From Candidatus Omnitrophota bacterium (GTDB lineage: Bacteria > Omnitrophota > Gorgyraeia > JACQQV01), in NCBI GenBank assembly GCA_016206785.1, contig JACQQV010000048.1, forward strand, positions 1,889 to 65,888: DNA of 64,000 nucleotides. The letters run 5' to 3'. Shown here piece after piece: positions 16,809-39,777 of this stretch; position 1 is the stretch's first letter, and the number at the start of each line of letters is the position of its first letter. The notes below the pieces were generated by a model. The model saw only the letters and a program-made list of their open reading frames with translations, was not told where the DNA came from and ran no database searches. A program made the translations under genes and the position numbers.

Positions 16809-17624
16809 ATGTATAACGCATACTGGGGCCTTGAGGAAAAACCTTTTGAGAACACCCCCGACCCCCGATTTATTTTTTACACCCCTCAGCATGAAGAAGG
16901 GCTTTCCCGCCTCCTCTATGCGGTTCGGGAAGAAAAGGGGGCCGCCCTTCTCACCGGTCTTTTCGGATGCGGGAAGACCCTCTTGGGTCGTGTTCTCTTT
17001 AAAGAGTTGGAAAAGGATATTTACCGAGTCGCTTTTATCACCAATCCTCAGATGGAATACATTGAACTGGTGATGGCCATTGCGATAGCCCTCGGCGCAC
17101 GAGACCTTCCCACGCGTCGCTCCGATGTCCTCGCCAATGTCGTCCTCCAAGTGCTTCAGCAAACCCTCCAAGACAATGCCCGTGATGGAAAAAAGACCGT
17201 GGTCATCATTGACGAGTCCCACATTATCGAAGACAAGCATGTTTGGGAGGGGTTAAGGCTTCTTCTTAATTTTCAGGCGGATGATAAATTTCTCATGACC
17301 CTCATTCTCTTGGGGCAACCGGAACTGAAGGAAAAGATCGAAAGTTTTAAACAGTTTTCCCAGCGGATCGCCATCCGTTGCCATGTCAGTTCCTTAAGCG
17401 AAGAGGAAAGCAAATCCTATGTGGTCCATCGGCTGAAGATCGCAGGACGAGAGATCCCGCTTTTTACACCGGAGGCCTTGCGTTTTATTTATGGGAAATC
17501 AGGAGGGATTCCGCGGCGGATCAACAGCATCTGTGATCTGGCGCTTCTTTCCGGTTTCGGAAAAAGTTCCAAGGAAATTGATCTCGCCACACTTCAGGAA
17601 GTGGTACGGGACATCGAAGGATAA
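16809..17624 (+). CDS. ExeA/GspA/MshM-family AAA+ ATPase
   Basis: The N-terminus 'YWGLEEKPFENTPDPRFIF' is the ExeA signature. The Walker A is 'GLFGCGKT'. The Walker B is 'VVIIDESH'. Confidence 0.8.
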   Translation: MYNAYWGLEEKPFENTPDPRFIFYTPQHEEGLSRLLYAVREEKGAALLTGLFGCGKTLLGRVLFKELEKDIYRVAFITNPQMEYIELVMAIAIALGARDLPTRRSDVLANVVLQVLQQTLQDNARDGKKTVVIIDESHIIEDKHVWEGLRLLLNFQADDKFLMTLILLGQPELKEKIESFKQFSQRIAIRCHVSSLSEEESKSYVVHRLKIAGREIPLFTPEALRFIYGKSGGIPRRINSICDLALLSGFGKSSKEIDLATLQEVVRDIEG

Positions 17625-17634
17625 AGGAGGACTC

Positions 17635-18270
17635 ATGAATATTCTTGCCATTGGGGCGCATCCGGATGACATTGAATACGGATGCGGAGGGGCGATTGCC
17701 AAATATAGCCGCTTGGGACATCAGGTCTATCTACTCATCATGACAAAAGGGGAGATCGGGGTTGGCGGAAAAGGATCCATTCGCCAGAACGAGCAGGTCC
17801 GGTCCTCTAAAATCCTGCGGGCCCAAAAGGTCTTCTGGGGAGGGTATAAAGACACGCAGATCTCCCTTGGGAAAGAGCTCATCACCCGAATTGAAAAGAC
17901 GGTTAAAGCGGTCAATCCCACCTTTATCTTTGTGAACTATTTGGACGATACCCATCAGGACCATCGGGCGGTCGCGCAGGCAACGAACACAGCGACCCGA
18001 TACACGAAGAACGTCCTTTTCTATGAAGTGCCGAGCACGCAGAACTTTAACCCCTCCGTTTTTATCGATATCCAGGGGGTGCTCAATCTGAAACTCGCAG
18101 CCCTTGAGGCCCACGCCTCCCAGGTCACCGCGACAAAGATCAAGGATCTCACCATTTTGGACAGTGCCCGCTCAAACGCGATCTTCCGGGGCATTCAGGG
18201 GAGGGTGAAATATGCCGAGGCCTTTGTCCCTTCACGCCTCTTCATCGCGATCGGGAAAAATTCCTTATGA
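17635..18270 (+). CDS. PIG-L/LmbE-family N-acetylglucosaminyl deacetylase
   Basis: The N-terminus 'MNILAIGAHPDDIEYGCGG' and 'HQDH' were seen. The RBS AAAGGAGG lies 5 nt upstream. Confidence 0.8.
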   Translation: MNILAIGAHPDDIEYGCGGAIAKYSRLGHQVYLLIMTKGEIGVGGKGSIRQNEQVRSSKILRAQKVFWGGYKDTQISLGKELITRIEKTVKAVNPTFIFVNYLDDTHQDHRAVAQATNTATRYTKNVLFYEVPSTQNFNPSVFIDIQGVLNLKLAALEAHASQVTATKIKDLTILDSARSNAIFRGIQGRVKYAEAFVPSRLFIAIGKNSL

Positions 18271-19400
18271 AAGACTTTACTCTTTTTGTTGCCGCAATCC
18301 TTTTCGGCCTTATCTTGACTCCCTTGGCAAGAAAGGCCGCCGTTCGTTATAAAATTTTAGATTATCCCGAGTCGAGAAAGATGCACGAAAGACCGACGCC
18401 CCTTTTGGGAGGGGTGGCCATTTATCTCGCTTTTCTATTTACCCTCGGCTATCTGGCCTTGACCTCTTCCTTCGCGCACACACGACCCTTCCTGGGAGTT
18501 CTTCTTGGCGCAACACTCATTTTGGTTGTGAGCCTTTTCGACGATATCCGAGAGCTCTCCACCTTCACACGGCTTCTTTTTCAGTTTTTGGGAAGTTTCA
18601 TCATGATCCTCTTCGGCGTCAAAGTCTCTTTTTTGCCTCCTGGCATTTGGGGGGATATCGGTGAAATCGTGATTACCTTTTTATGGGTGATCGGGATCAC
18701 CAATGCCATGAACTTCTTGGACGGTTTGGATGGCTTGGCCTGTGGCTTAAGTATCATTGCAGGAATCTTTTTCTATGTGGTCGGAAAGGAGCTCCATCAA
18801 CTTTACTTTGCAGGGTTAGTATTGGCCCTCGCCGGTGTCTGTTTGGGATTTCTGCCTTATAATTTTCCCGTTCCTTTTCTTTATTTAAAAAGAGCACTGA
18901 AGGGGGGCCAAAAGAGTTCCCGTCCGCTGGGAGGAGATCGGGCACGGATCTTTTTGGGAGATTGCGGGGCCACCTTTCTGGGGTCCTTTTATGCGGGGAT
19001 TTCGGTCATGGGGGATCTGGCCACCCACAATGTCATCGCCTTGTCGGTTCCCATTCTTCTTTTGGGCATTCCGATTTTTGACACCACCTTCATTACCATC
19101 ATGCGCATCCGGGAAAGAAAGATCTCGGATCTTACAGGGTGGCTCGCCTATGCCGGGAAGGATCATTTTCACCATCGCCTTGTGGATCTCGGATTTTCGA
19201 ACGGTGGAGCGGTCTTTTTTATCTATTGCGTGGCCATTGTGTTAGGGATCGATGCGATCCTCATTCAAAACATGGATCCTTTCGGTGCCCTACTCGTTCT
19301 TTTAAAAGTGGCGCTTCTTTTTATTCTGATTGCTCTGCTCATGGTGACGGGGAGACGTACAGCGATAGAAGAGGAAAAGAAACAGAGAAAAACTCTTTGA
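18267..19400 (+). CDS. Polyprenol-phosphate sugar-1-phosphate transferase (GT4 MraY/WecA family)
   Basis: The motif 'ITNAMNFLDGLDGLA' and about 10 transmembrane segments were seen. Confidence 0.8.
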   Translation: MKDFTLFVAAILFGLILTPLARKAAVRYKILDYPESRKMHERPTPLLGGVAIYLAFLFTLGYLALTSSFAHTRPFLGVLLGATLILVVSLFDDIRELSTFTRLLFQFLGSFIMILFGVKVSFLPPGIWGDIGEIVITFLWVIGITNAMNFLDGLDGLACGLSIIAGIFFYVVGKELHQLYFAGLVLALAGVCLGFLPYNFPVPFLYLKRALKGGQKSSRPLGGDRARIFLGDCGATFLGSFYAGISVMGDLATHNVIALSVPILLLGIPIFDTTFITIMRIRERKISDLTGWLAYAGKDHFHHRLVDLGFSNGGAVFFIYCVAIVLGIDAILIQNMDPFGALLVLLKVALLFILIALLMVTGRRTAIEEEKKQRKTL

Positions 19401-19425
19401 CAAAAGCGAGATTTTATGGTAACTT
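19397..19425 (+). promoter_or_regulatory. Candidate sigma70 promoter (TTGACA-17-TAACTT) upstream of the HD-domain gene
   Basis: The hexamers were seen in the sequence with a 17-bp spacer. Confidence 0.3.
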
Positions 19426-19446
19426 GTAGTTTTATATGGAGTTAGG

Positions 19447-20355
19447 ATGAGTGTTGATGTGGAGGGGGCAACCCATCTTTATGATGAGGCGACGGCGCTC
19501 ATGAGGAGGATTTTCCAGCAGGCCGAACAGAACGAACCGATTGATGGGAAAGAGATCGCAGAATTGGTTTGGCGCCTCGTAGAGCATATGACGCTGGGGG
19601 ATAAGGGGCTTGTTTATTTCACCAATCGCTCAACACCTCGGAATTACTTCATCGCCCAGTCTGTCAATGTCTGCATTCTTTCCCTTTTGGTCGGCGGGGC
19701 GTTAGGCTATGATACCTCCAAACTGCACGAATTGGGGGTGGCTGCACTTCTCCATGACATTGGGATGGTGAAGGTCCTCAAGATCGCCACCCAGCCGAGG
19801 AAATTGACCCCCGAAGAATTGGAAGAGATCCGGAAACACCCGACGTATGGGGTCCAGATTCTCCAGAAGATCGATCTGTTGCACGAATCGACCCTCTTCG
19901 TCTGCCGGGAGCATCGTCGGAGAAAGTGGGGAAAAGCCCCCGCCTCCCCCAGCGAGAAACTCGCAAGAGAATATGCGCAAATCGTGGGGACCATTGATAT
20001 CTATGTGGCGATGACACAGCCCCGCCCTTACCGGGAAGCCAAACTTTCTCATGAAGCGGTTCGGGAGCTGATCGGTACAGCGCTGGAAATTTTTGATACC
20101 CGCGTCATGAAAACCCTCATTAACCAGATTGGTATTTATCCGATCGGGTCGTGGGTGAAGTTGAACACAGAAGAGATCGCGCGGGTGGTGGGGCAGAACC
20201 AAAATTTTCCCCTCCATCCGATCGTCGAAATCCTTTTTGATCCGAAGGGCCATTTCTTAGAGACCACGAAGACATACGATCTCTTCAAACAACAGATCCT
20301 CTATATTAAAGAACCGGTCGATTATCAGAAATTGCAACTGTCTGGAAAAGAGTGA
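19447..20355 (+). CDS. HD-domain phosphohydrolase, HD-GYP-like but with a degenerate GYP motif
   Basis: The HD core 'ALLHDIGMV' is present. 'EHRRRKWGKA' sits where HHExxDGxGYP is expected. Confidence 0.65.
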   Translation: MSVDVEGATHLYDEATALMRRIFQQAEQNEPIDGKEIAELVWRLVEHMTLGDKGLVYFTNRSTPRNYFIAQSVNVCILSLLVGGALGYDTSKLHELGVAALLHDIGMVKVLKIATQPRKLTPEELEEIRKHPTYGVQILQKIDLLHESTLFVCREHRRRKWGKAPASPSEKLAREYAQIVGTIDIYVAMTQPRPYREAKLSHEAVRELIGTALEIFDTRVMKTLINQIGIYPIGSWVKLNTEEIARVVGQNQNFPLHPIVEILFDPKGHFLETTKTYDLFKQQILYIKEPVDYQKLQLSGKE

Positions 20356-20376
20356 CAGAAGGAAGGGGGTGATCGA

Positions 20377-20550
20377 GTGAAAGGATTAGCCAATGCACTT
20401 TTGGTGATTGCAGCACTCAGCCTTGTGGTCGGCATCATTTCACGGTTAACGATGCAACCAATCGGGGGAGGGCTTGAGGCCCATGCATTTCTTGATTTTG
20501 CCCAGACCCTTCTCTTGGCCGTGATCGCGCTTTCCGTCCTTAAAAAGTAA
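20377..20550 (+). CDS. Possible small hydrophobic protein (57 aa, two predicted transmembrane helices), GTG start
   Basis: The translation is 'VKGLANALLVIAALSLVVGIISRLTMQPIGGGLEAHAFLDFAQTLLLAVIALSVLKK'. It is below the ORF-track size cutoff. A purine-rich SD-like sequence lies upstream. Confidence 0.3.
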   Translation: MKGLANALLVIAALSLVVGIISRLTMQPIGGGLEAHAFLDFAQTLLLAVIALSVLKK

Positions 20551-20561
20551 ATCACGCACAA

Positions 20562-20603
20562 GGGCCCCCCGTTTCACTGGACTTCCAGTGAAACGGGGGG
20601 CTC
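20562..20603 (+). promoter_or_regulatory. Very stable hairpin with a 16-19 bp perfect stem (CCCCCCGTTTCACTGG / CCAGTGAAACGGGGGG) and no U-tract; candidate RNA structure or protein-binding palindrome
   Basis: Seen directly in the sequence. It lies about 27 nt upstream of the RBS and ATG of the sensor gene. Confidence 0.5.
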
Positions 20604-20626
20604 TCCTCGAAGAGGTGGGGGGTCCA

Positions 20627-22042
20627 ATGACAAATTTTTTTAAGACACTTTCGCTCACGCCGCAGAAATTGCGCTATAAATTAGGAATCGCTTTCTTTCT
20701 CATGTCACTCATCCCTCTCTTTGTTTGCACCTTTTTTGTTCTTGCCTATATCTACCCCGAAACCCGCTATGATTTTACAATCGGTTCTTCAGCGATGTTC
20801 GTCATTATTGCCATCACCCTTTTTATCACCCTTCTCGGTTTTAGTGTCATCCGACAGATGGTGGATCCTGTCGTGACCATCGCCCGCAAGGCGAAGCAGG
20901 TTGCGGAGGGAAGGACAGACGCCGCCTTTGACATCGTTCGAGAAGATGAGATCGGGGACTTGAGCGATTCTCTCACTAAGATGACCTCGCGGATCAAAGA
21001 GACGATCACCGAGCTCCATGCTTATAGTGAAAAGACAAAAGAGATTAACATTGAGATCCAACAAAAAGTGCTCACCCTTTCGAACCTTCTCCAGATCGGG
21101 AACCTCATTTCTGCTGGGACCCCCTTGGAGGAGGTGATCGGAGCGATCATCGAAAAATTGGGTCAGTTGGAGATGACCGCCTCTTCGTTTATCTACGTTT
21201 TGGAGTCGGAAGGAGTCCTCATACGCAGATGGGTTCAGAACATTGAGCCATCCCTCCTTCCGGAAAGGGTCACTTTTGGGAGCGGACTCTTGGGCAAGGT
21301 GGCGAGCCAAGGAGAAGGATTGATCGTCGATTCCAAGGGAGGGGGTGGGCTGGAGACCAAAGAATTAAGGTACACCCTTCGCCTTAAGAATCTTGCAATC
21401 TTTCCGGTGACGTCCCGTGGCGTGGTGGTGGGACTCTTAGGCGCAGGGAATAATCTGGATCAGTTCTTCTTCCGCGAGGATGATCTTGAAACGATCAGAG
21501 TTTTTGTAAAACAGATTTCGATTGCGGTCGAGAACGATCTCTTGACGAAACGGGCGAAAGAGCTTCAGATGAAAGATGAACTCACAAAGCTTTACAACGA
21601 GAAGTTCACGCGCCAGCGCCTCGAAGAAGAGATCAGGCGGGCGATCCGTTATCAAAGGCCCTGTTCCCTCATCCTTGTCGATATCGATCATTTCCAGATG
21701 GTGAAAACCCAATCGCAACCAGAACTGTTGAAACAAGTGGCCAAGGAGATCGAAAAGCAGATTACAGAGGTGGATCGGGCCGCACGGTTTGACCGGGATC
21801 TTTTCGCCCTGATCATTCCGGAGAGAAACAAGAAAGAAGCGACCCAATTGGCGGAGAGTCTCCGCCGGACGATCGAAGAGCAATATGGCCAAGGAAGAGG
21901 GTTTCAGGGGCAAAAGGTCACCATGAGTGCCGGTGTTTCGGAAAATCCGATTGATGGGTCCACGGCAGAAGCGCTTATTCAAAAAGCGAAAGAGGCGCTC
22001 ACCACAGCAAAATCGCTGGGAAAGAATCGCGTGGTCGCGTAG
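20627..22042 (+). CDS. Membrane-anchored HAMP-GAF protein with a degenerate GGDEF domain (likely non-catalytic)
   Basis: A transmembrane segment, a HAMP domain and a GAF-like region are followed by a GGDEF fold ('LILVDIDHFQMV', 'RFDRDLFALIIPE' instead of RYGGEEF, and 'GKNRVV'). A start at 20588 is an alternative. Confidence 0.7.
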   Translation: MTNFFKTLSLTPQKLRYKLGIAFFLMSLIPLFVCTFFVLAYIYPETRYDFTIGSSAMFVIIAITLFITLLGFSVIRQMVDPVVTIARKAKQVAEGRTDAAFDIVREDEIGDLSDSLTKMTSRIKETITELHAYSEKTKEINIEIQQKVLTLSNLLQIGNLISAGTPLEEVIGAIIEKLGQLEMTASSFIYVLESEGVLIRRWVQNIEPSLLPERVTFGSGLLGKVASQGEGLIVDSKGGGGLETKELRYTLRLKNLAIFPVTSRGVVVGLLGAGNNLDQFFFREDDLETIRVFVKQISIAVENDLLTKRAKELQMKDELTKLYNEKFTRQRLEEEIRRAIRYQRPCSLILVDIDHFQMVKTQSQPELLKQVAKEIEKQITEVDRAARFDRDLFALIIPERNKKEATQLAESLRRTIEEQYGQGRGFQGQKVTMSAGVSENPIDGSTAEALIQKAKEALTTAKSLGKNRVVA

Positions 22043-22073
22043 TCCACAACGTTAAAAAGGAGAGATTGCGAAA

Positions 22074-23147
22074 ATGGCTGTTGAGACTCAAATCATTGAT
22101 TATTTGCGGCGGATGGTGACACGGGATGCCTCAGATCTCCACCTCACCGCTGGCTCTCCTCCCCGGGTGCGGGTCGATGAGCAGTTGGTGAACCTGGATG
22201 AGACCCTCCTTTCCGGGGATCGTGTGAAAGAACTCGCTTACAGTATTTTAACCCCTCAACAGGTGGAGCGCTTTGAGAGGGAGAAAGAGCTTGACATGGC
22301 CTTTGGGATAGAAGGCTTAAGCCGTTACCGCGTGAATGTCTTTATGCAGAAAGGGACCGTGGCGGCCGCGATCCGTACCCTCCCGCACAAAATTCGAACC
22401 TTTGAGGAATGCGGCCTGCCGATCACGGTGGTCACAAACCTCTGCAAACAACCGAAGGGATTGGTGTTGGTCACCGGGGCAACGGGAAGCGGGAAATCGA
22501 CCACCTTGGCCTCGATGATCAATAAGATTAACAGTGAACGGAAATGCCATGTCATTACCGTCGAGGACCCGATCGAATACGTCTTTAAAAATGACAAGGC
22601 CTTGATTCAGCAACGGGAGGTCGGGGAAGATACACTCTCTTTTGCCCAATCTCTCCGTCGAATCTTAAGGCAGGACCCGGATGTGATCTTGATCGGAGAG
22701 ATGCGCGATCTTGAGACGATCCGGGCGGCTTTGAACATTGCGGAAACAGGACACCTTGTTTTTGCCACCCTTCATACCTCTGATGCGGTCTCCTCGATCA
22801 ACCGTGTCATTGACGTCTTCCCCTCTTCCCAGCAGCAACAGGTGCGGGTCCAGCTCTCTTTTGTGCTGATGGCGGTTTTGTCTCAGCAACTCATCCCACA
22901 TGCGCAGGGGAAAGGGCGCGTCTTGGCGGCGGAGGTCTTGATTGCCAACCATGCGGTCCGAAGTCTCATCCGGGAGGCCAAAATTCACCAGATCTACTCC
23001 ATCGTCCAGACGGCGAGTCGTGAAGGGATGCGTACGATGAACCAATCCCTTTATGAACTCTACGTCAAGAAGGCGCTCACCCTCGAGAACGCCTTGTCAC
23101 GTACCCTCGAAGTCGAAGAACTCGAAAGACTTATCAGCCGTTCCTAA
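22074..23147 (+). CDS. pilT: Type IV pilus retraction ATPase PilT
   Basis: The Walker A is 'GATGSGKSTT'. The motifs 'VEDPIEYV' and 'ILIGEMRD' were seen. Confidence 0.9.
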   Translation: MAVETQIIDYLRRMVTRDASDLHLTAGSPPRVRVDEQLVNLDETLLSGDRVKELAYSILTPQQVERFEREKELDMAFGIEGLSRYRVNVFMQKGTVAAAIRTLPHKIRTFEECGLPITVVTNLCKQPKGLVLVTGATGSGKSTTLASMINKINSERKCHVITVEDPIEYVFKNDKALIQQREVGEDTLSFAQSLRRILRQDPDVILIGEMRDLETIRAALNIAETGHLVFATLHTSDAVSSINRVIDVFPSSQQQQVRVQLSFVLMAVLSQQLIPHAQGKGRVLAAEVLIANHAVRSLIREAKIHQIYSIVQTASREGMRTMNQSLYELYVKKALTLENALSRTLEVEELERLISRS

Positions 23148-23159
23148 AGGGAGTTTCGT

Positions 23160-23621
23160 GTGAGCGTAAGCAAGCGACTGATTACAAAGCAGCTGGGTGA
23201 ACTTCTGATTGAACGGGGTGTCATCACAAAAGACCAGGTTGAAAAGGCCCTCGCGGTTCAAAAAGAAGAAGGGGGCCTCATTGGTCAAATCCTCGTCAGA
23301 CTCGGCTTTACCACTGAAGAAGAAATCGCCCAGGCGCTCACTGCCCAATTCGGGTTTCCCTACCTTCCTCTCAAAAACTATGAGATTGCGGGTGATGTGA
23401 TCAAGCTTGTTCCTGAGAATGTCGCCCGGCAATATTGTCTGATTCCGGTGGACCGGATCGGGAACGCCCTTACCATCGCGATGTCGAATCCCTTAAATGT
23501 CCAAGCGCAGGAAGATATTGAACTCATTACGAAATGCAAAGTTCAGGTATTCGTTTCAACGATGACCGACATCAACGACGCCATCAACCGTTCTTATGCG
23601 CAGGGAGATAACCCCATCTAA
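23160..23621 (+). CDS. Stand-alone GspE-N/MshEN domain protein (predicted c-di-GMP-binding)
   Basis: The sequence 'LGELLIERGVITKDQVEKALAVQ' and 'CLIPVDRIGNALTIAMSNPLN' matches the MshEN fold. The start is GTG. Confidence 0.7.
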   Translation: MSVSKRLITKQLGELLIERGVITKDQVEKALAVQKEEGGLIGQILVRLGFTTEEEIAQALTAQFGFPYLPLKNYEIAGDVIKLVPENVARQYCLIPVDRIGNALTIAMSNPLNVQAQEDIELITKCKVQVFVSTMTDINDAINRSYAQGDNPI

Positions 23622-23632
23622 CGAGGACGGAG

Positions 23633-25348
23633 ATGCCCCCCTCTCTCAAACAGAAATTAAGTGATTTCCTCATCGAAAAAAAGGTGCTCACCCCCGAGAC
23701 GCTGGAGCAGGCACTGCAAAAGCAAAAGGAGAAGGGGGGGCGTTTAAGCCCTATCCTCATCGAAATGGGGGTTGTTTCTGAAAAGGATCTTGTCGCGCTT
23801 CTCAGCGAAAACTTAGGGATCCCGCCTGTAGACCTTTCCCGTTTTGAAATAGACCCTGCCATGGCCAAAGTGATTTCTCGTGAAATCGCCTACCACTACG
23901 AAATCGTTCCCATTTCAAAAATCGGAGACACCGTGACGATCGCGATTGCCGATCCTTTAAATCTCTTTGCCGCGGAGGAGATCAAGGCGCTGACAGGACT
24001 GGAGATCCGCCCGACGATCGCCACAGAGGTGGACATTCGGGGGGCCCTTCGCAAACTCTACGATCAATCGATGCAGCAAGCCATTGAAGATGTTGTCAAG
24101 CGGATCAAGCAGACGACCAAAGATAAGGTGGAACTGGTTGAAGCAGAGGAAGGGGAGGCCATCGGGTCAGAAGAGCTTCTCCGGTTGACCCAAGGGGCCC
24201 CCGTGGTCCAGGTGACCAATCTGGTCCTTGAAGAGGCCTGCCGCCTGCGTGCCAGCGATATCCTGATCGAGCCGATGCAGGACACCGTTCGGATCCGCTA
24301 TCGCGTGGATGGGATTCTCAAAACAGGCACCGCTCCTCCCCGAACGATGCATGAGGCGGTTGTCTCGCGTATTAAGGTCATGTCGAACATGGATATTGCG
24401 GAGAGGCGTCTTCCTCAGGATGGACGATTTAAGATGAAACTTCAAGAGCGCGAGATCGATTTTCGTGTCTCTACCGTCCCCTCCAGTTTCGGAGAGAAGG
24501 TGGCCCTCCGCGTCTTGGACAAATCACAGGCCCCCTTAAATCTTGATGGTTTAGGATTTGAGGAGAAACCGCTAGAAGACATGAAAAAGGCAAGTCTCCG
24601 TCCCTATGGCATGATCCTTGTCTGCGGGCCGACAGGGAGTGGAAAGACGACCACCCTTTATTCCATCCTCAAGTATGTGGACTCTCCTGAAAAAAATATT
24701 GTGACGGTGGAAGACCCGGTTGAATTTCAACTGGAAGGGATTAACCAGGTGACCGCGCGAACCGACATCGGTCTCACTTATGCCGCGGCGCTCCGCTCCA
24801 TCTTAAGGCAAGACCCCGATATCATCATGGTCGGTGAAATCAGGGACTTCGAAACGGTGGATGTAGGGATCAAGGCGGCCCTGACAGGTCATCTGGTCTT
24901 AAGTACGCTTCATACCACAACCGCCTGCGGGGCGGTCGTGCGGCTTTTAAACATGGGGGTGGAACCTTTTTTGATTACTTCCGCTGTGACGCTGGCTTGT
25001 TCCCAGCGTCTCTTGCGGAAACTTTGTAGTGCCTGCAGAAAACCGTATCGGTTGGATGCAGCATTGGCGGGAAGGTTAGGACTCCCGTTTGATCCCAAGG
25101 AAGAGGTCAAGTTTTATAGGGGTGCAGGATGCTCCCAATGTTTCGGCACAGGATACTCCGGTCGCATGGGGGTCATGGAGACTCTGCCCCTTACCCCTCG
25201 GATTCGAGAATTGGTGTTAAATCGTGCGCGAGAGAGTGAACTCCTTGCCGAGGCGAAGAAAGAGGGGCTCGTCACACTCCGGGAGGATGCCCTGTCCAAG
25301 GCGCGGGAGGGGAAGACCTCTCTTGAGGAAGTGTTTCGGGTGACTTAA
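23633..25348 (+). CDS. PilB/GspE/MshE-type secretion ATPase with N-terminal MshEN domain
   Basis: The N-terminus 'LSDFLIEKKVLTPETLEQALQKQ' is MshEN. The Walker A is 'GPTGSGKTTT'. The tetracysteine motif is 'CSACRK...CSQCFGTGYSGR'. Confidence 0.85.
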   Translation: MPPSLKQKLSDFLIEKKVLTPETLEQALQKQKEKGGRLSPILIEMGVVSEKDLVALLSENLGIPPVDLSRFEIDPAMAKVISREIAYHYEIVPISKIGDTVTIAIADPLNLFAAEEIKALTGLEIRPTIATEVDIRGALRKLYDQSMQQAIEDVVKRIKQTTKDKVELVEAEEGEAIGSEELLRLTQGAPVVQVTNLVLEEACRLRASDILIEPMQDTVRIRYRVDGILKTGTAPPRTMHEAVVSRIKVMSNMDIAERRLPQDGRFKMKLQEREIDFRVSTVPSSFGEKVALRVLDKSQAPLNLDGLGFEEKPLEDMKKASLRPYGMILVCGPTGSGKTTTLYSILKYVDSPEKNIVTVEDPVEFQLEGINQVTARTDIGLTYAAALRSILRQDPDIIMVGEIRDFETVDVGIKAALTGHLVLSTLHTTTACGAVVRLLNMGVEPFLITSAVTLACSQRLLRKLCSACRKPYRLDAALAGRLGLPFDPKEEVKFYRGAGCSQCFGTGYSGRMGVMETLPLTPRIRELVLNRARESELLAEAKKEGLVTLREDALSKAREGKTSLEEVFRVT

Positions 25349-25349
25349 A

Positions 25350-27050
25350 GTGGCTGAAACGTTTCGAGAGCGACTTACGTCGCTCCTTCTTAAAAGCGAT
25401 CTCGTCGATAAAAAGAAATTGGAGCATGCCCTTGCCATTCAGAAGAAAGAGGGGGGGGCGCTGAGCCAGATCCTTGTCCGGGAAGGATGGATTTCCGAGA
25501 AGGAACTCCTTGCCCTTTTGAGCCAGGAACTGGACATTCCCCCCATCGACCTTTCTCGGTTTAAAATTGATCCCGAAATTGCAAAGATGGTTCCGGAACG
25601 GATCGCCCGCCAGTATCACCTCATTCCGATCTCGCGGATCGGCAACACCCTTGTCATCTCCATGGCAGACCCCTTGAATATTTTCGCGATGGATGATTTG
25701 AGAATGCTTACCCATTATCAGATCGATCCTGTCTTGAGCACCGATAAAGATATTCTGGCGGCGATTGACAGGATTTACACGCCGCAAGATCTTAAAATTT
25801 CCCGGATTCTGGAGGGAGCGGAGATCGATGTTTCTACCGACTTGACCGACCAGGAGGAGGTGGATCTTGAGGCGATCGCAAAGAGTCCAGAAAAGGTTCC
25901 GATCGTAGAGATCGTGAATCTCATTTTGATCGAAGCGCTCGACAAACGGGCAAGCGACATTCATCTCGAACCGGGAGAGGACCGCCTGCGCATACGCTAC
26001 CGGATCGACGGAAATCTACTCGATGCCGTTTCTTTGCCCAAGGAAAGCCAACAAGCGATCGCCTCGAGACTCAAGATCATGTGCGGGCTGGACATCACAG
26101 AAAGCCGGCTCCCGCAGGACGGGCGTTTCAGGATCCGTTTCCGGGGGAAGGAGATCGATTTCAGGGTTTCGGTCCTTCCGATCATGTACGGCGGAAAGAT
26201 GGTGCTGCGTATTCTGGATAAATCGGCTTTGCAGTTCGGGCTGGAACATCTCGGTTTCAATGCCGCTCCGCTCGTGAAATTCAAGGAGGCGGTGAAAAAA
26301 CCTTTCGGCATGATCCTCTTGACGGGACCGACAGGATGCGGAAAATCGACCACCCTTTATTCTCTCCTCCAAACGCTGAACGTCCCCGAACGAAACTTAA
26401 CCACCATCGAAGATCCGATTGAATACCAGGTCGAAGGGGTCACGCAGATCCAGGTTCATCCAGACATTGGGCTCACCTTTGCGGGCGGTCTCCGTTCGGT
26501 TCTCCGGCAAACACCCGATGTCATCATGGTGGGAGAGATTCGCGATTTCGAAACGGCCGACATCGCCGTCAAGTCCTCTCTGACCGGGCACCTCATTTTA
26601 AGTACCCTCCATACCAATGACGCTCCGAGTGCCATCACACGTCTGGTAGACATGGGGGTGGAGCCGTATCTCATCGCATCGAGCCTGATCGTCGTCGGTG
26701 CGCAAAGACTCTGCCGCGTGATCTGTACAAACTGCAAGGAGAAAGTGACTCTTGAGAAGTCTCTTCTGGGGAGTATTGGACTGAAGGAACCGAAGCAGAA
26801 TACCTTTTACCAGGGAAAGGGTTGCCGGAAATGCGCCAAGACCGGCTACTTTGGCCGGATGGGGATTTTGGAGGTTCTCGAAGTCGATGACAAAGTGCGG
26901 GAGATGATTTTGAATCGTGCCTCAACGGCCGAGTTGACCGACTATGCGAGGAAACATGGGATGATCACCCTCCACGAGGATGCCTTGAAAAAGTTTGAAA
27001 TGGGATTTACCACCCTTGAGGAAGTCATGCGCGTCACTGTCCAGGAGTAA
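25350..27050 (+). CDS. Second PilB/GspE/MshE-type ATPase with N-terminal MshEN domain (tandem paralog)
   Basis: The N-terminus 'LTSLLLKSDLVDKKKLEHALAIQ' is MshEN. The Walker A is 'GPTGCGKSTT'. The tetracysteine motif is 'CTNCKE...CRKCAKTGYFGR'. The start is GTG. Confidence 0.85.
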   Translation: MAETFRERLTSLLLKSDLVDKKKLEHALAIQKKEGGALSQILVREGWISEKELLALLSQELDIPPIDLSRFKIDPEIAKMVPERIARQYHLIPISRIGNTLVISMADPLNIFAMDDLRMLTHYQIDPVLSTDKDILAAIDRIYTPQDLKISRILEGAEIDVSTDLTDQEEVDLEAIAKSPEKVPIVEIVNLILIEALDKRASDIHLEPGEDRLRIRYRIDGNLLDAVSLPKESQQAIASRLKIMCGLDITESRLPQDGRFRIRFRGKEIDFRVSVLPIMYGGKMVLRILDKSALQFGLEHLGFNAAPLVKFKEAVKKPFGMILLTGPTGCGKSTTLYSLLQTLNVPERNLTTIEDPIEYQVEGVTQIQVHPDIGLTFAGGLRSVLRQTPDVIMVGEIRDFETADIAVKSSLTGHLILSTLHTNDAPSAITRLVDMGVEPYLIASSLIVVGAQRLCRVICTNCKEKVTLEKSLLGSIGLKEPKQNTFYQGKGCRKCAKTGYFGRMGILEVLEVDDKVREMILNRASTAELTDYARKHGMITLHEDALKKFEMGFTTLEEVMRVTVQE

Positions 27051-27053
27051 CCG

Positions 27054-28259
27054 ATGCCCACTTATCGATATACCGCAAAAGATCAGGAAGGTCGCTCGAT
27101 TACAGGAGTCTCGAAGGTTGGGTCCCAGACCCTTCTCATCGATGCGCTCCGGAAAAAGGACCTTGTCATCATCTCCGTTACCCAGGAAAAAGATAAGAAA
27201 AAACAGATCGTCATTAGAGGCGGGATTAGGCTGGATGATATTGTCCTTTTTTCAAGACAACTTGCGACCATGGTCGATAGCGGGATTCCTCTCCTACAAA
27301 GCCTCGATATCCTCACCGAACAGATCGAGAATCCTTCCTTCCGACGGATTATTATGAAAACGCGCAATGACGTAGAGACCGGGAGTTCTCTTTCTGGTGC
27401 CCTCTCCAAGCATGTCCGCGTTTTTTCTCCCTTGTACATCAACATGGTCAAGGCCGGCGAATCGAGTGGAATGCTCGATGATATTTTGGATCGGCTTGCC
27501 ACGTATCTTGAGAAGATGAATGCCCTCCGGCGAAAAGTAAAATCTGCGCTCATCTATCCCGCTGTGGTGGTGACCATGGCGATCCTTATCACCACCTTTT
27601 TGATGCTTAAAGTGATTCCGACCTTTAAGGGAATCTTTGAGACACTGGGAGGGACCCTCCCCCTTCCCACGCGTACCTTGATCGCGGTGAGCGATTTCCT
27701 GAATCGATACTTTCTCTACGGCGTGGGGGTTCTGATCCTTCTTGTGGTGGCCCTTGTTCTGTACACCCGGACCGAAAAGGGAAGACTTAACCGAGACCGT
27801 GTCCTCATGCATCTTCCCATTTTCGGGAAACTGTTTCAGAAGGCGACGGTGGCTCGCTTTTCAAGAACCCTTTCCACCTTGGTTAAAAGTGGTGTTCCGA
27901 TCCTCTCAAGTCTTGAGATCGTGGGAAAAAGCGCCGGCAACAAAGTGATCGAGATGGCGCTGGAGGAAGCCCGTGCTTCGATTCGAGAGGGGGAAAATAT
28001 CGCCGGTCCCCTTTCCAAGAGGGGGGTTTTCCCACCCATGGTCATCCGGATGATCGCGGTCGGGGAGGAGACGGGCGAACTCGAAAAGATGCTTTCCAAG
28101 ATTTCCGATTTTTATGAAGAACAGGTGGAGGCGGCAGTCGCTGGGCTTACCTCCATTATCGAACCTTTGATCATCGGTTTCCTGGGTGTTGTCGTGGGGG
28201 GGATTGTGGTCTCCATGTTTTTACCCATCTTTAAGTTAACGGAACTCATTTCAAAATAA
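27054..28259 (+). CDS. pilC: Type IV pilus/T2SS platform protein PilC/GspF family
   Basis: The two-repeat GspF architecture is present, with 'GIPLLQSLDIL' and 'GVPILSSLEIV'. Confidence 0.9.
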   Translation: MPTYRYTAKDQEGRSITGVSKVGSQTLLIDALRKKDLVIISVTQEKDKKKQIVIRGGIRLDDIVLFSRQLATMVDSGIPLLQSLDILTEQIENPSFRRIIMKTRNDVETGSSLSGALSKHVRVFSPLYINMVKAGESSGMLDDILDRLATYLEKMNALRRKVKSALIYPAVVVTMAILITTFLMLKVIPTFKGIFETLGGTLPLPTRTLIAVSDFLNRYFLYGVGVLILLVVALVLYTRTEKGRLNRDRVLMHLPIFGKLFQKATVARFSRTLSTLVKSGVPILSSLEIVGKSAGNKVIEMALEEARASIREGENIAGPLSKRGVFPPMVIRMIAVGEETGELEKMLSKISDFYEEQVEAAVAGLTSIIEPLIIGFLGVVVGGIVVSMFLPIFKLTELISK

Positions 28260-28260
28260 G

Positions 28261-37807: not shown

Positions 37808-38162
37808 GAGGGGAGCGGTGATCGTGGCAGGAACCGTATTCCTCATGGGGGTGGGTGAGTTCTCTTTTGCGGGGAATTATGTGTATGAGAAAAAGGGCCG
37901 CGACCCCTTCTGGCCGCTTGTCACAGAAAGCGGAAAGGTGCTTCAGGGATTTGATGTGGCCACATTGGAAGATATCTACTTGGAGGGGATTATCTGGGAC
38001 TCCAAGGGAGATTCGATTGCAATGATCAATGGGATGATCCTGCGGAAGGGTGACCGCATCGGGGACTTTGAAATTTTGAAGATTGAGGAGGATCGTGTGA
38101 TCCTCCAATCGGCGAATGGGCACCATCTTTTGACGCTCGACAAGGACAAAAAAGATTTCTAA
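37758..38162 (+). CDS. pilP: PilP-like pilus assembly protein
   Basis: The C-terminus 'EGIIWDSKGDSIAMINGMILRKGDRIGDFEILKIEEDRVIL' resembles the PilP beta domain. The start is uncertain; a GTG at 37818 is an alternative. Confidence 0.55.
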   Translation: MLDLLWKPLYAKRRVLERGAVIVAGTVFLMGVGEFSFAGNYVYEKKGRDPFWPLVTESGKVLQGFDVATLEDIYLEGIIWDSKGDSIAMINGMILRKGDRIGDFEILKIEEDRVILQSANGHHLLTLDKDKKDF

Positions 38163-38178
38163 GAAGGAAGGGGGGACG

Positions 38179-39777
38179 TTGGTGAAAGAAAATTTGGGGG
38201 AATGGCGGAAGGTTCTCTTTTTTGGAATCGTCATCGGTTTGAGTGCATTCACCACCGTCTCGGGTCAAGAGGGAAGGGCCCCCTCGGAGGTTCCTCCCAA
38301 CGGGGGAATAGCCGATGCGGGGATCGTGGAGACAACTCCCGGCAACATTACCATGGATTTCAAAGACGCTGATATCAATAATGTGCTTCGGATTCTTTCC
38401 TACAAAAGTGGCGTCAATATCGTCACAGGAAAGGATGTCCAGGGACTGGTGACGATTCGCTTAACCGACGTCCCGTGGGAAAAGGCGTTGGATGTGATCT
38501 TAAGGACCTACGGCTTCTCCTACGAACGGGAAGGAAACATCATCCGTGTGACCACCGTGGAAGGTCTTGAGAAAGAGGAGCTCGTGACGGAAGTCTTTGT
38601 CTTAAACTATGCAAAGGCCTCTTCCGTGATCGAATCGATTCGGGATATTTTGACGGAGAGGGGAAGGGTCCGTTTTGACGAAAGGACAAACGTCCTCATC
38701 GTGAGCGATATCCCGACCAACATTTATAAGATTAGCCAAGTCGTGAAGCGCCTGGATCAACGCACACCGCAGGTGGCGATTGAAGCCAAGATCGTGGAGA
38801 CGAGCCTCGACAATGATGACAAGCTCGGGATCGACTGGTCGATTCAAGTGGCGGCCAGGGGATCTGCCCGACCGACCACGTTTCCGTTCGAAAAGTTTGG
38901 AAGAAAGAATTTAGGAATACTGAAGCCTGTCGTCGGCACGGCCGATACCACGGCAGCGAATACGACAACGGTGGGAAGCGGAGGTGCCACCACCTCAACC
39001 ACAGCGCTCTCTACCTTTCCTGCGGCCCAGGCATTCCCCTTTGTCACGAAGGATCAATTTACTTTTGGAACACTCGCCTTTGATCAGTTTTCACAGATTT
39101 TGGAGATCTTGAAATCGAGGCGGGACACCCGCATTCTCTCCAATCCGAGGATTACGACGCTTAACAATCAGACGGCCAACATTCTCGTCGGAGAGATCCT
39201 TGCCATACCGATCTTTGAACGGAACGAAAATACCGGCAATGTAGAGATCACAGGCTACACCGAGAAAGACCTCGGGATTAAACTGTCGGTCACCCCTCAC
39301 GTGAATGATGAGGGGATGATCCTGGTCGAGATCAAGCCTGAGATCTCAAGCCTTTTGGGGTTTGACGAACTCACCCCCGAGGTGAGGGCTCCCCGTTTTG
39401 CCACCCGAGAAGCGGAGACGCAGATTCTCGTGAGGGATGGCGACACGATCGCCATCGGGGGGCTTGTCTCGGAGAACAAAACGGATTCTGTGAGGAAGGT
39501 CCCCCTTTTGGGAGATATCCCCGGTTTAGGATATTTTTTCACTTCGAAGACCAATACGAAGGATAGAACCGATCTCCTTTTCTTTGTGACAGTGCATATT
39601 GTCACGGATCGGGATTTCCAGGAAGCGAAGTTGGCCACCGAGAAGATGGGGGAAAGACCGTCCCTCGGTAAGGTCCAACCCCCGACGAAGGAAGAGAAAG
39701 AACAAAGGGTGCAGGAGGGATTTATTGAGGAGCAAAAAGCCCCCTCTCCCGAAGCGCCTCTTCCTGGGACTCCTTAG
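38179..39777 (+). CDS. pilQ: Type IV pilus secretin PilQ
   Basis: The secretin N domain has 'NIVTGKDVQGLVTIRLTDVPWEKALDVIL'. The secretin C domain has 'RILSNPRITTLNNQTANILVG' and 'VPLLGDIPGLGYFF'. Confidence 0.9.
   Translation: MVKENLGEWRKVLFFGIVIGLSAFTTVSGQEGRAPSEVPPNGGIADAGIVETTPGNITMDFKDADINNVLRILSYKSGVNIVTGKDVQGLVTIRLTDVPWEKALDVILRTYGFSYEREGNIIRVTTVEGLEKEELVTEVFVLNYAKASSVIESIRDILTERGRVRFDERTNVLIVSDIPTNIYKISQVVKRLDQRTPQVAIEAKIVETSLDNDDKLGIDWSIQVAARGSARPTTFPFEKFGRKNLGILKPVVGTADTTAANTTTVGSGGATTSTTALSTFPAAQAFPFVTKDQFTFGTLAFDQFSQILEILKSRRDTRILSNPRITTLNNQTANILVGEILAIPIFERNENTGNVEITGYTEKDLGIKLSVTPHVNDEGMILVEIKPEISSLLGFDELTPEVRAPRFATREAETQILVRDGDTIAIGGLVSENKTDSVRKVPLLGDIPGLGYFFTSKTNTKDRTDLLFFVTVHIVTDRDFQEAKLATEKMGERPSLGKVQPPTKEEKEQRVQEGFIEEQKAPSPEAPLPGTP

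Follow-up and report, generated by a model that had tools for sequence, protein, structure and literature searches.

A 64 kb window (the whole stretch of DNA analysed here) from an Omnitrophota bacterium carries a type IVa pilus cluster on its + strand. One gene of this cluster encodes a stand-alone MshEN protein of 153 residues which, judged by its sequence and modelled fold, is a good candidate for a receptor of cyclic di-GMP (c-di-GMP). We moderately favour a reading in which this protein alone senses c-di-GMP and acts in trans on the pilus motor, the N-terminal domains of the two PilB ATPases of the cluster (PilB1 and PilB2) serving for docking. The original prediction for this locus went further. 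It described an MSHA-like pilus subject to multilayer gating, in which three MshEN domains, a degenerate GGDEF domain and a degenerate HD-GYP domain would all be c-di-GMP receptors. Such gating appears overstated, and on our best reading the locus has a single c-di-GMP sensor, acting in trans, instead of five receptors.

Contact residues in the three MshEN domains

The inventory of domains behind the original prediction proved sound. Pfam searches recovered MshEN/T2SSE, GGDEF and HD_5 at the coordinates that had been given for them. The three MshEN domains (PF05157), one on the 153-residue protein and two on the tandem PilB ATPases, score far above the family cutoff of 23.1 bits (73, 78 and 78.5 bits, respectively). 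The MshEN motif for binding c-di-GMP is made of two copies of RLGxx(L/V/I)(L/V/I)xxG(L/V/I)(L/V/I)xxxxLxxxLxxQ linked by a five-residue joint; the backbone of Gly3 contacts guanine, and Gln24 contacts ribose and phosphate (PMC5013675). Position 1 of the consensus was later widened to R/K/L from work on Thermus PilF, whose arginine-free GSPII-B domain (Lys167, Leu196) binds c-di-GMP with a dissociation constant of 6 nM, Leu196 stacking on guanine (PMC11731258). The GSPII-A domain of PilF has His, Ser, Ala and Arg at the contact positions and showed no c-di-GMP binding experimentally (PMC12002112).

In the stand-alone protein the motif reads QLGxxLIxxGVIxxxxVxxxLxxQ, then KEEGG, then LIGxxLVxxGFTxxxxIxxxLxxQ. 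It deviates from the consensus at three places: Gln at position 1 of motif I, Val at position 17 of the same motif, which is conservative, and Thr at position 12 of motif II. Leu at position 1 of motif II is allowed by the widened consensus, and this position is Leu or Phe in all 49 orthologues. Both Gly3 and both Gln24 residues are kept in 48 of the 49, so that the stand-alone protein holds its place as a receptor candidate.

The two PilB domains, whose motif register was checked against the canonical RLG/RLG/Q of Geobacter PilB, behave otherwise. None of 47 PilB1 and none of 40 PilB2 orthologues retains all four of these residues. The window copies carry KLS..K..Q and RLS..G..N (PilB1) and RLT..D..Q and ALS..G..E (PilB2); that is, all four half-motifs have Ser or Thr for Gly3, motif I has Lys or Asp at the Gly10 turn, and motif II has Asn or Glu for Gln24. 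Among the PilB1 orthologues, Gly3 of motif I is present in 2 of 47 and Gln24 of motif II in none, and position 1 of motif II is Ser in 32; the corresponding counts in PilB2 are 0 of 40 for Gly3 of motif I and 3 of 40 for Gln24 of motif II. With Ser at position 1 of motif II, no Gly at 3 and no Gln at 24, the deviations of PilB1 and PilB2 resemble those of the non-binder GSPII-A. Alignment thus supports conserved c-di-GMP contact residues in the stand-alone protein and not in the PilB N-domains, which have lost them and probably do not bind c-di-GMP.

Profile models do not separate the two cases. NF053729, the NCBIfam model of the c-di-GMP motif (cutoff 38), gives 65.3 bits to the stand-alone protein and 56.6 and 44.2 bits to the two PilB domains. 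We rejected it as a binding test because the proven non-binder GSPII-A of PilF also passes, at 52.5 bits, which makes the model non-discriminating. Domain-level matches to hidden Markov models (HMMs) overstate the number of c-di-GMP receptors.

The fold of the stand-alone protein was modelled with AlphaFold2 (predicted local distance difference test score, pLDDT, 88). Its top Foldseek match was 5HTL, the Vibrio cholerae MshE domain with c-di-GMP (TM-score 0.78/0.85, root-mean-square deviation 2.1 A, 32% identity), followed by the GSPII domains of PilF and the Xanthomonas PilB-N:PilZ complex. Since the PilB N-domains keep the fold without Gly3 and Gln24, the fact that these residues are nearly invariant in the stand-alone protein suggests that they are under selection to contact a ligand.

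Conservation of the core operon and lack of intact c-di-GMP enzymes

The window was compared by BLASTP with the neighbourhoods of two distant homologues and with 52 loci from species-representative genomes; 48 non-redundant Omnitrophota loci were considered. The genes for a HAMP-GAF-GGDEF protein, PilT, the stand-alone MshEN protein, PilB1, PilB2 and PilC are complete and in identical order in 33 of the 48. The remaining 15 are cut by contig ends, the genes present agree with the core order, and no locus deviates from it. Median intergenic gaps in this tightly packed core are 4-14 nt; in the window, the MshEN gene sits between pilT and pilB1 with gaps of 11-12 nt. All-pairs median identity is 65% for PilT, 59% for the stand-alone MshEN protein, 53-55% for the PilBs and 39% for the GGDEF protein. 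In more distant Omnitrophota (L001:538-7438 and L003:3-7400), the core operon is found immediately downstream of mreBCD, the PBP2 gene, rodA and a radical-SAM gene, with no glycan cluster there.

We considered whether the MshEN open reading frame (ORF) could be a pseudogene fragment of pilB and rejected this, as a complete ORF of 146-160 codons (one copy being contig-cut) is found in 48 related loci, its product being 53-83% identical to the window copy. The 153-residue protein is 100% identical to a protein from a metagenome-assembled genome of Candidatus Omnitrophica, and hundreds of relatives of ~150 residues share ~70% identity with it; all of those with a named source are from Omnitrophota. 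Many more MshEN-only proteins, of 145-158 residues and 40-70% identity, came from a search through 1.84 billion representative proteins; most of them have a hydrophobic residue at position 1 of motif II. MshEN-only proteins form a sizeable family, and no study of stand-alone MshEN proteins of this length was found in the literature searched. Two further arrangements were seen: tandem MshEN-only genes (149 and 153 codons) directly before a PilB-like gene in one contig (L058:110-1037, ENA contig NODE_318738), and proteins of ~1300 residues with 6-7 MshEN-like stretches each (P0243, P0251, P0276 and P0297).

For PilT, the retraction ATPase, whose gene the original prediction did not mention, all 44 aligned sequences keep the Walker A and Walker B motifs, the Asp box and the His box. 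The catalytic boxes and the tetracysteine motif of PilB1 are intact. In the His box, the first His is invariant in PilB1 (47/47) and PilT (44/44); in PilB2 it is Gln in 35 of 40 orthologues and Glu in 2, and is His only in the window copy and in those of loci L006 and L039. PilB2 may serve in a mixed motor, as a subunit with altered catalysis.

The first gene of the core encodes the membrane-anchored HAMP-GAF-GGDEF protein. That its GGDEF motif is missing had been noticed earlier; the pentapeptide RFDRD given in its place is two residues off register, since it is DRDLF that aligns to the GGEEF of WspR, and the RF aligns to RY. In the same alignment, a four-residue deletion takes out the FGHx segment. 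The guanine-binding Asn335 is replaced by Lys and Asp344 by Pro (PleD numbering), so the GG(D/E)EF, Asn335 and Asp344 of active diguanylate cyclases are all absent. The inhibitory site (I-site) reads (T)EVD, the Arg position being gapped against the RSSD of WspR. This state extends beyond the window: among 40 orthologues the motif is GGDEF in 1, SGDEF in 5 and a variant such as SGDTF, GPDEF, ERDRF or DDGEF in the rest, and neither the Asn335 equivalent nor the I-site Arg occurs in any of them.

To our knowledge, the RxxD I-site is the sole established mode by which degenerate GGDEF domains act as c-di-GMP receptors. Receptors of this type include PelD and PopA, in which RxxD precedes the GGDEF position by five residues. 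As the RxxD arginine is missing in 40 of 40 sequences, we rejected an I-site receptor role for this protein; with I-site, catalytic motif and guanine-binding residues all gone, no known mode of c-di-GMP binding fits it. Its two transmembrane helices are separated by a loop of 17 residues, which leaves it with no periplasmic sensor. From these features the protein is taken to be a phylum-wide pseudo-cyclase, one that more likely transduces a signal through its GAF domain or acts as a scaffold. No second, active GGDEF domain was found nearby: phmmer with the WspR GGDEF over all ORFs of 56 loci recovered the operon copy alone.

The other enzyme-like gene encodes an HD-GYP-like protein, whose degenerate GYP motif had been correctly recognised. 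Relative to PmGH (4MCW) and V-cGAP3, Gln stands in for the first His, HR for HH, WG for DG and A-P for GYP; the protein retains the HD dyad, the His of KH-P and the final Asp. The full His/Asp metal set and the HHExxDGxGYP sequence of HD-GYP phosphodiesterases are thus lacking. Its classing as an established receptor is not supported. We know of no validated degenerate HD-GYP receptor of c-di-GMP, the gene has no orthologues outside the two closest relatives, and one of these two orthologues (L006) has HN in place of HD. This marks a decaying, clade-specific gene.

The earlier observation that the locus has no intact cyclase or phosphodiesterase therefore stands. Pfam searches that took in the main ORFs of the 64 kb window, all but a few short ones, gave no further GGDEF, EAL, HD-GYP or PilZ domain.

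Gene content of the pilus locus

ORF listing and translation confirmed the + strand ORFs of the region, and positions 16809-39777 form one co-directional block (Table 1). Its assignment as a type IVa pilus cluster comes from matches to the PilB, PilT, PilC, PilM, PilO and PilQ models and to N_methyl prepilins. A glycan-synthesis cluster of ~16 kb occupies positions 1-16.8 kb, upstream, with the ExeA-like ATPase gene at its end, and housekeeping genes (RNase G, Obg, ProB, ProA, ArgRS, Mfd and GatAB) follow the pilus genes.

Table 1. Features of the pilus locus and its flanking genes, in window coordinates.
Feature	Position	Strand	Evidence
ExeA/GspA-type AAA_22 ATPase, outside the conserved core	16809-17624	+	Pfam AAA_22 61 bits
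PIG-L family de-N-acetylase	17635-18270	+	PF02585 87 bits; BshB1-like 117 bits, below cutoff
WecA/MraY-type polyprenyl-phosphate sugar-1-phosphate transferase (Glycos_transf_4)	18267-19400	+	PF00953 112.7 bits
Degenerate HD-GYP-like protein, clade-specific accessory	19447-20355	+	HD_5 56 bits
Membrane-anchored HAMP-GAF-GGDEF pseudo-cyclase (predicted), first core gene	20588-22042	+	Pfam HAMP, GAF_2, GGDEF (91.7 bits)
PilT retraction ATPase	22074-23147	+	TIGR01420 470 bits, cutoff 319
Stand-alone MshEN protein, 153 aa, candidate c-di-GMP sensor	23160-23621	+	PF05157 73 bits; NF053729 65.3 bits
PilB1 extension ATPase, degenerate MshEN motif	23633-25348	+	T2SSE 450 bits, MshEN 78 bits, TIGR02538 638 bits
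PilB2, second paralogous ATPase, degenerate MshEN motif	25350-27050	+	T2SSE 436 bits, MshEN 78.5 bits, TIGR02538 639 bits
PilC platform protein	27054-28259	+	T2SSF 220.7 bits, two repeats
Polytopic membrane protein with C-terminal TPRs, candidate PMT_2/TMTC-like GT-C glycosyltransferase	28261-29949	+	TPR Pfam matches only
Sigma-70-like promoter of first pilin gene	30016-30044	+	Consensus match only
Probable major pilin	30169-30609	+	N_methyl 36 bits
Second pilin paralogue	30689-31138	+	N_methyl 33.6 bits
Minor-pilin-like gene	31150-31620	+	GFTMVELL prepilin-like N-terminus
Minor-pilin-like gene	31604-32461	+	N_methyl 26.7 bits
Two paralogous ~500-aa PilX_N-like proteins	32490-33977, 33959-35491	+	Weak PilX_N match, 18 bits
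PilM, PilN-position gene, PilO, PilP/GspB-like gene, PilQ secretin	35473-39777	+	PilM_2 181, PilO 73, T2SSB 23.5 (weak), Secretin 160 bits, with Secretin_N and STN

Both PilB1 and PilB2 score just under the equivalog cutoff of TIGR02538 (675.65). The two PilX_N-like proteins are clearly paralogous, match no family beyond their weakly PilX_N-like N-termini and are missing from some related loci; their role could be that of large minor pilins or of tip adhesins.

Several genes of the block are lineage-specific additions to the core, namely those for the HD-GYP-like protein, the ExeA-like ATPase, the PIG-L and WecA-like enzymes and the glycosyltransferase candidate with tetratricopeptide repeats (TPRs). 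The per-gene BLASTP comparison found the ExeA-like gene only in the closely related locus L005 and the PIG-L and WecA-like genes only in L005 and L006; the TPR protein gene is present in a subset of the related loci. The claim that an ExeA/MshM-like ATPase heads the pilus locus is not tenable, given that the PIG-L and WecA-like genes intervene and that the ATPase gene is mostly missing from relatives. Among NCBIfam models the ATPase matches TIGR03015 best (XrtA/PEP-CTERM-associated ATPase; 216 bits, below the cutoff of 324). The gene at 37683-38162, between pilO and pilQ, has weak T2SSB/GspB similarity (23.5 bits), which is also faint in relatives; together with the ExeA/GspA-type ATPase, its product could form an ExeAB-like pair aiding secretin assembly. 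The long PIG-L ORF begins at 17491 and overlaps the ExeA-like gene by 134 nt (17491-17624). The true start is likely the internal Met at 17635 (MNILAIGAHPDD), the Pfam match beginning at residue 52.

The protein encoded between pilC and the pilins had been called a TPR protein in support of an MSHA-like order. Its TPRs are real, and Pfam matches them alone. They are preceded by at least eight predicted transmembrane segments, and a PMT_2/PMT match (PF13231 or PF02366) is recorded for ~20 of 120 homologues, which speaks against an MshN-like role. A FVWDD sequence (Asp37, Asp38) is conserved near the N-terminus, and several homologues carry the JGI name protein O-mannosyl-transferase. The membrane part had no PDB match in a single-sequence search, and a profile search was swamped by TPR matches. 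We regard this protein as a candidate PMT_2/TMTC-like GT-C glycosyltransferase rather than an MshN. Its presence together with the WecA-like transferase, the PIG-L enzyme and the upstream glycan cluster suggests O-glycosylation of pilin or of surface proteins, and the PIG-L, WecA-like and TPR proteins may glycosylate the pilin itself.

The first pilin gene is preceded by TTGACA-17-TATAAT with an upstream TG, matching 12 of 12 consensus positions, and followed by a terminator with a 15-bp stem (30635-30669). Bracketed in this way, it is marked as a separately and strongly expressed major pilin, a prediction drawn from the consensus. Over 16-32 kb, the numbers of promoters and terminators are not above those in shuffled controls; only this promoter and this long terminator stand out.

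Sensing in trans, rival readings and known systems

How might the stand-alone MshEN protein control the pilus? We hypothesize that c-di-GMP is synthesised elsewhere in the cell and would be read by this protein alone, through an arginine-free, GSPII-B-like pocket, a pocket type that predicts high affinity. The loaded sensor would then act in trans on PilB1/PilB2, on PilT or on the PilM/PilC platform, and in this way shift the balance between extension and retraction. The PilB N-domains, their contact residues lost, would probably serve only as docking modules. The locus would then offer a shortlist for study: one probable c-di-GMP reader of ~150 residues, two probably non-binding PilB N-domains and one conserved pseudo-cyclase.

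Type IVa pili are near-universal in a survey of Omnitrophota and are considered key to the predatory or parasitic way of life proposed for these uncultured, very small bacteria (PMC10066038). That survey makes no mention of c-di-GMP, PilB, PilT or GGDEF, and the Omnitrophota preprints searched (10.1101/2023.11.21.568195 and a 2026 complete-genome preprint) tie no c-di-GMP, PilB or GGDEF to this locus. If the predicted binding holds, the operon would represent a conserved variant of c-di-GMP control of the type IV pilus motor, undescribed in the literature searched.

Several points weigh against sensing by the stand-alone protein alone. Position 1 of its motif I is Gln, Thr, Lys or Arg among orthologues, and Gln and Thr fall outside R/K/L. 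GSPII-A demonstrates that a near-consensus motif gives no guarantee of binding (PMC12002112). On the side of the PilBs, the Q190E and Q218E mutants of GSPII-B were crystallised still holding c-di-GMP (9GL5, 9GLG), so that Glu at position 24 of a PilB need not abolish binding, and Gly3 of motif II is kept in about half of the PilB1 orthologues. There is also no cyclase within the window to supply the ligand, and the partner and the sign of the regulation are a guess from gene order.

The lack of a cyclase, together with the death of the operon's own GGDEF protein across the phylum, could be taken to mean that c-di-GMP is not involved. The stand-alone MshEN would then be a structural adaptor, for instance a PilM/PilC-docking module for PilT or for a PilB1/PilB2 ring, or would bind another ligand. 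Its conservation runs over the full length and includes a C-terminal subdomain with an invariant GFPYLPL, as expected of protein-protein surfaces, and MshEN-type N-domains dock in other systems (Xanthomonas PilB-N:PilZ, 7LKO; EpsE:EpsL). We nevertheless think this unlikely. Gly3 and Gln24 are not needed for the fold, as the PilB N-domains illustrate, and the residues conserved in the stand-alone protein are the exact ligand-contact set of 5HTL and 8PDK. Moreover, c-di-GMP components have been reported elsewhere in genomes of Omnitrophota, where giant proteins contain GGDEF domains and PilZ genes lie next to them (10.1101/2023.11.21.568195).

A second alternative accepts binding and reverses its effect. 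The protein is paralogous to the N-domains of the PilBs, being 41% identical to PilB2-N and 32% identical to PilB1-N, and could use the same docking site, and its position between pilT and pilB1 would suit a decoy or brake that competes with these domains for PilM/PilC or sequesters PilT; c-di-GMP would then turn the pilus off or switch between PilB motors. This is quite improbable, because c-di-GMP on MshEN promotes pilus functions both in V. cholerae MshE and in the GSPII-B domain of Thermus PilF (PMC5013675, PMC11731258).

Gating of an MSHA-like pilus by all five domains is very improbable, even though the three MshEN domains pass both family models, the PilBs retain the hydrophobic core positions of the motif and the GSPII-B mutants kept their ligand: NF053729 passes a non-binder as well, no PilB1 or PilB2 orthologue has all four contact residues, the I-site arginine is gone from all 40 orthologues of the GGDEF protein, the HD-GYP-like gene is missing from most relatives and is itself decaying, and the MSHA features are not found here.

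The preferred reading, a single MshEN sensor acting in trans, can be set against systems already described. In the MSHA locus, mshI-J-K-L-M-N-E-G-F precedes the pilins, the secretin and alignment genes lie upstream of the ATPase gene, there is no pilT, and the periplasmic TPR protein MshN and the ExeA-like ATPase MshM are encoded inside the operon. The order here is PilT, MshEN, PilB, PilB, PilC, GT-C/TPR protein, pilins and PilM-N-O-P-Q; the ATPases match best as PilB, and the TPR protein is probably of GT-C type. On gene content and order we therefore rejected an MSHA-type pilus, and with it the gene order proposed originally.

Closest in sequence to all three N-domains and to the ATPase cores are Geobacter and Myxococcus PilB (5ZFR, 5TSG, 3JC8), with N-domain matches at E-values of 1e-25 to 1e-31 and 36-42% identity. 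These systems have a single PilB with canonical RLG...Q / RLG...Q motifs in cis and no stand-alone MshEN gene. V. cholerae MshE (5HTL) shares with the stand-alone protein the domain family and the tandem 24-residue motif with its 5-residue spacer, but its sensor is in cis and uses Arg9 and Arg38, whereas here it would be a separate protein with no arginine at these positions.

The FimX-PilZ-PilB system of Xanthomonas (7LKO) offers a parallel for action in trans. A separate c-di-GMP sensor acts there on a PilB with a non-binding N-domain, a degenerate GGDEF protein is included, and the PilB-N fold matches. The parts are distributed differently: in Xanthomonas the EAL domain of FimX senses and a degenerate PilZ adapts, whereas an MshEN domain is the candidate sensor here, and the degenerate GGDEF protein is a HAMP-GAF protein with no EAL.

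A further likeness is to Thermus thermophilus PilF (6F8L, 8PDK, 9G1W), in which a type IV pilus motor likewise has three MshEN-type domains, binding and non-binding ones mixed. Lys167 and Leu196 of GSPII-B correspond to Gln11 and Leu40 of the stand-alone protein; both are arginine-free and the folds agree with a TM-score of ~0.7, although Gln at position 1 of motif I is outside the published consensus. In PilF the A, B and C domains are fused on one ATPase, whereas here such domains are spread over three polypeptides, with the full set of contact residues only on the free one. It is tempting to propose, as a tentative and somewhat doubtful extension, that c-di-GMP sensing has moved from the ATPase to a separate conserved MshEN protein, which, with two PilB paralogues (one with its His box altered in most species), rebuilds the three-GSPII set of PilF in trans, and that the pseudo-cyclase feeds a second, non-nucleotide signal into the motor. 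If true, an MshEN receptor would here act in trans for the first time, and the PilB motor would be heteromeric, in a lineage thought to consist of pilus-dependent predators or parasites.

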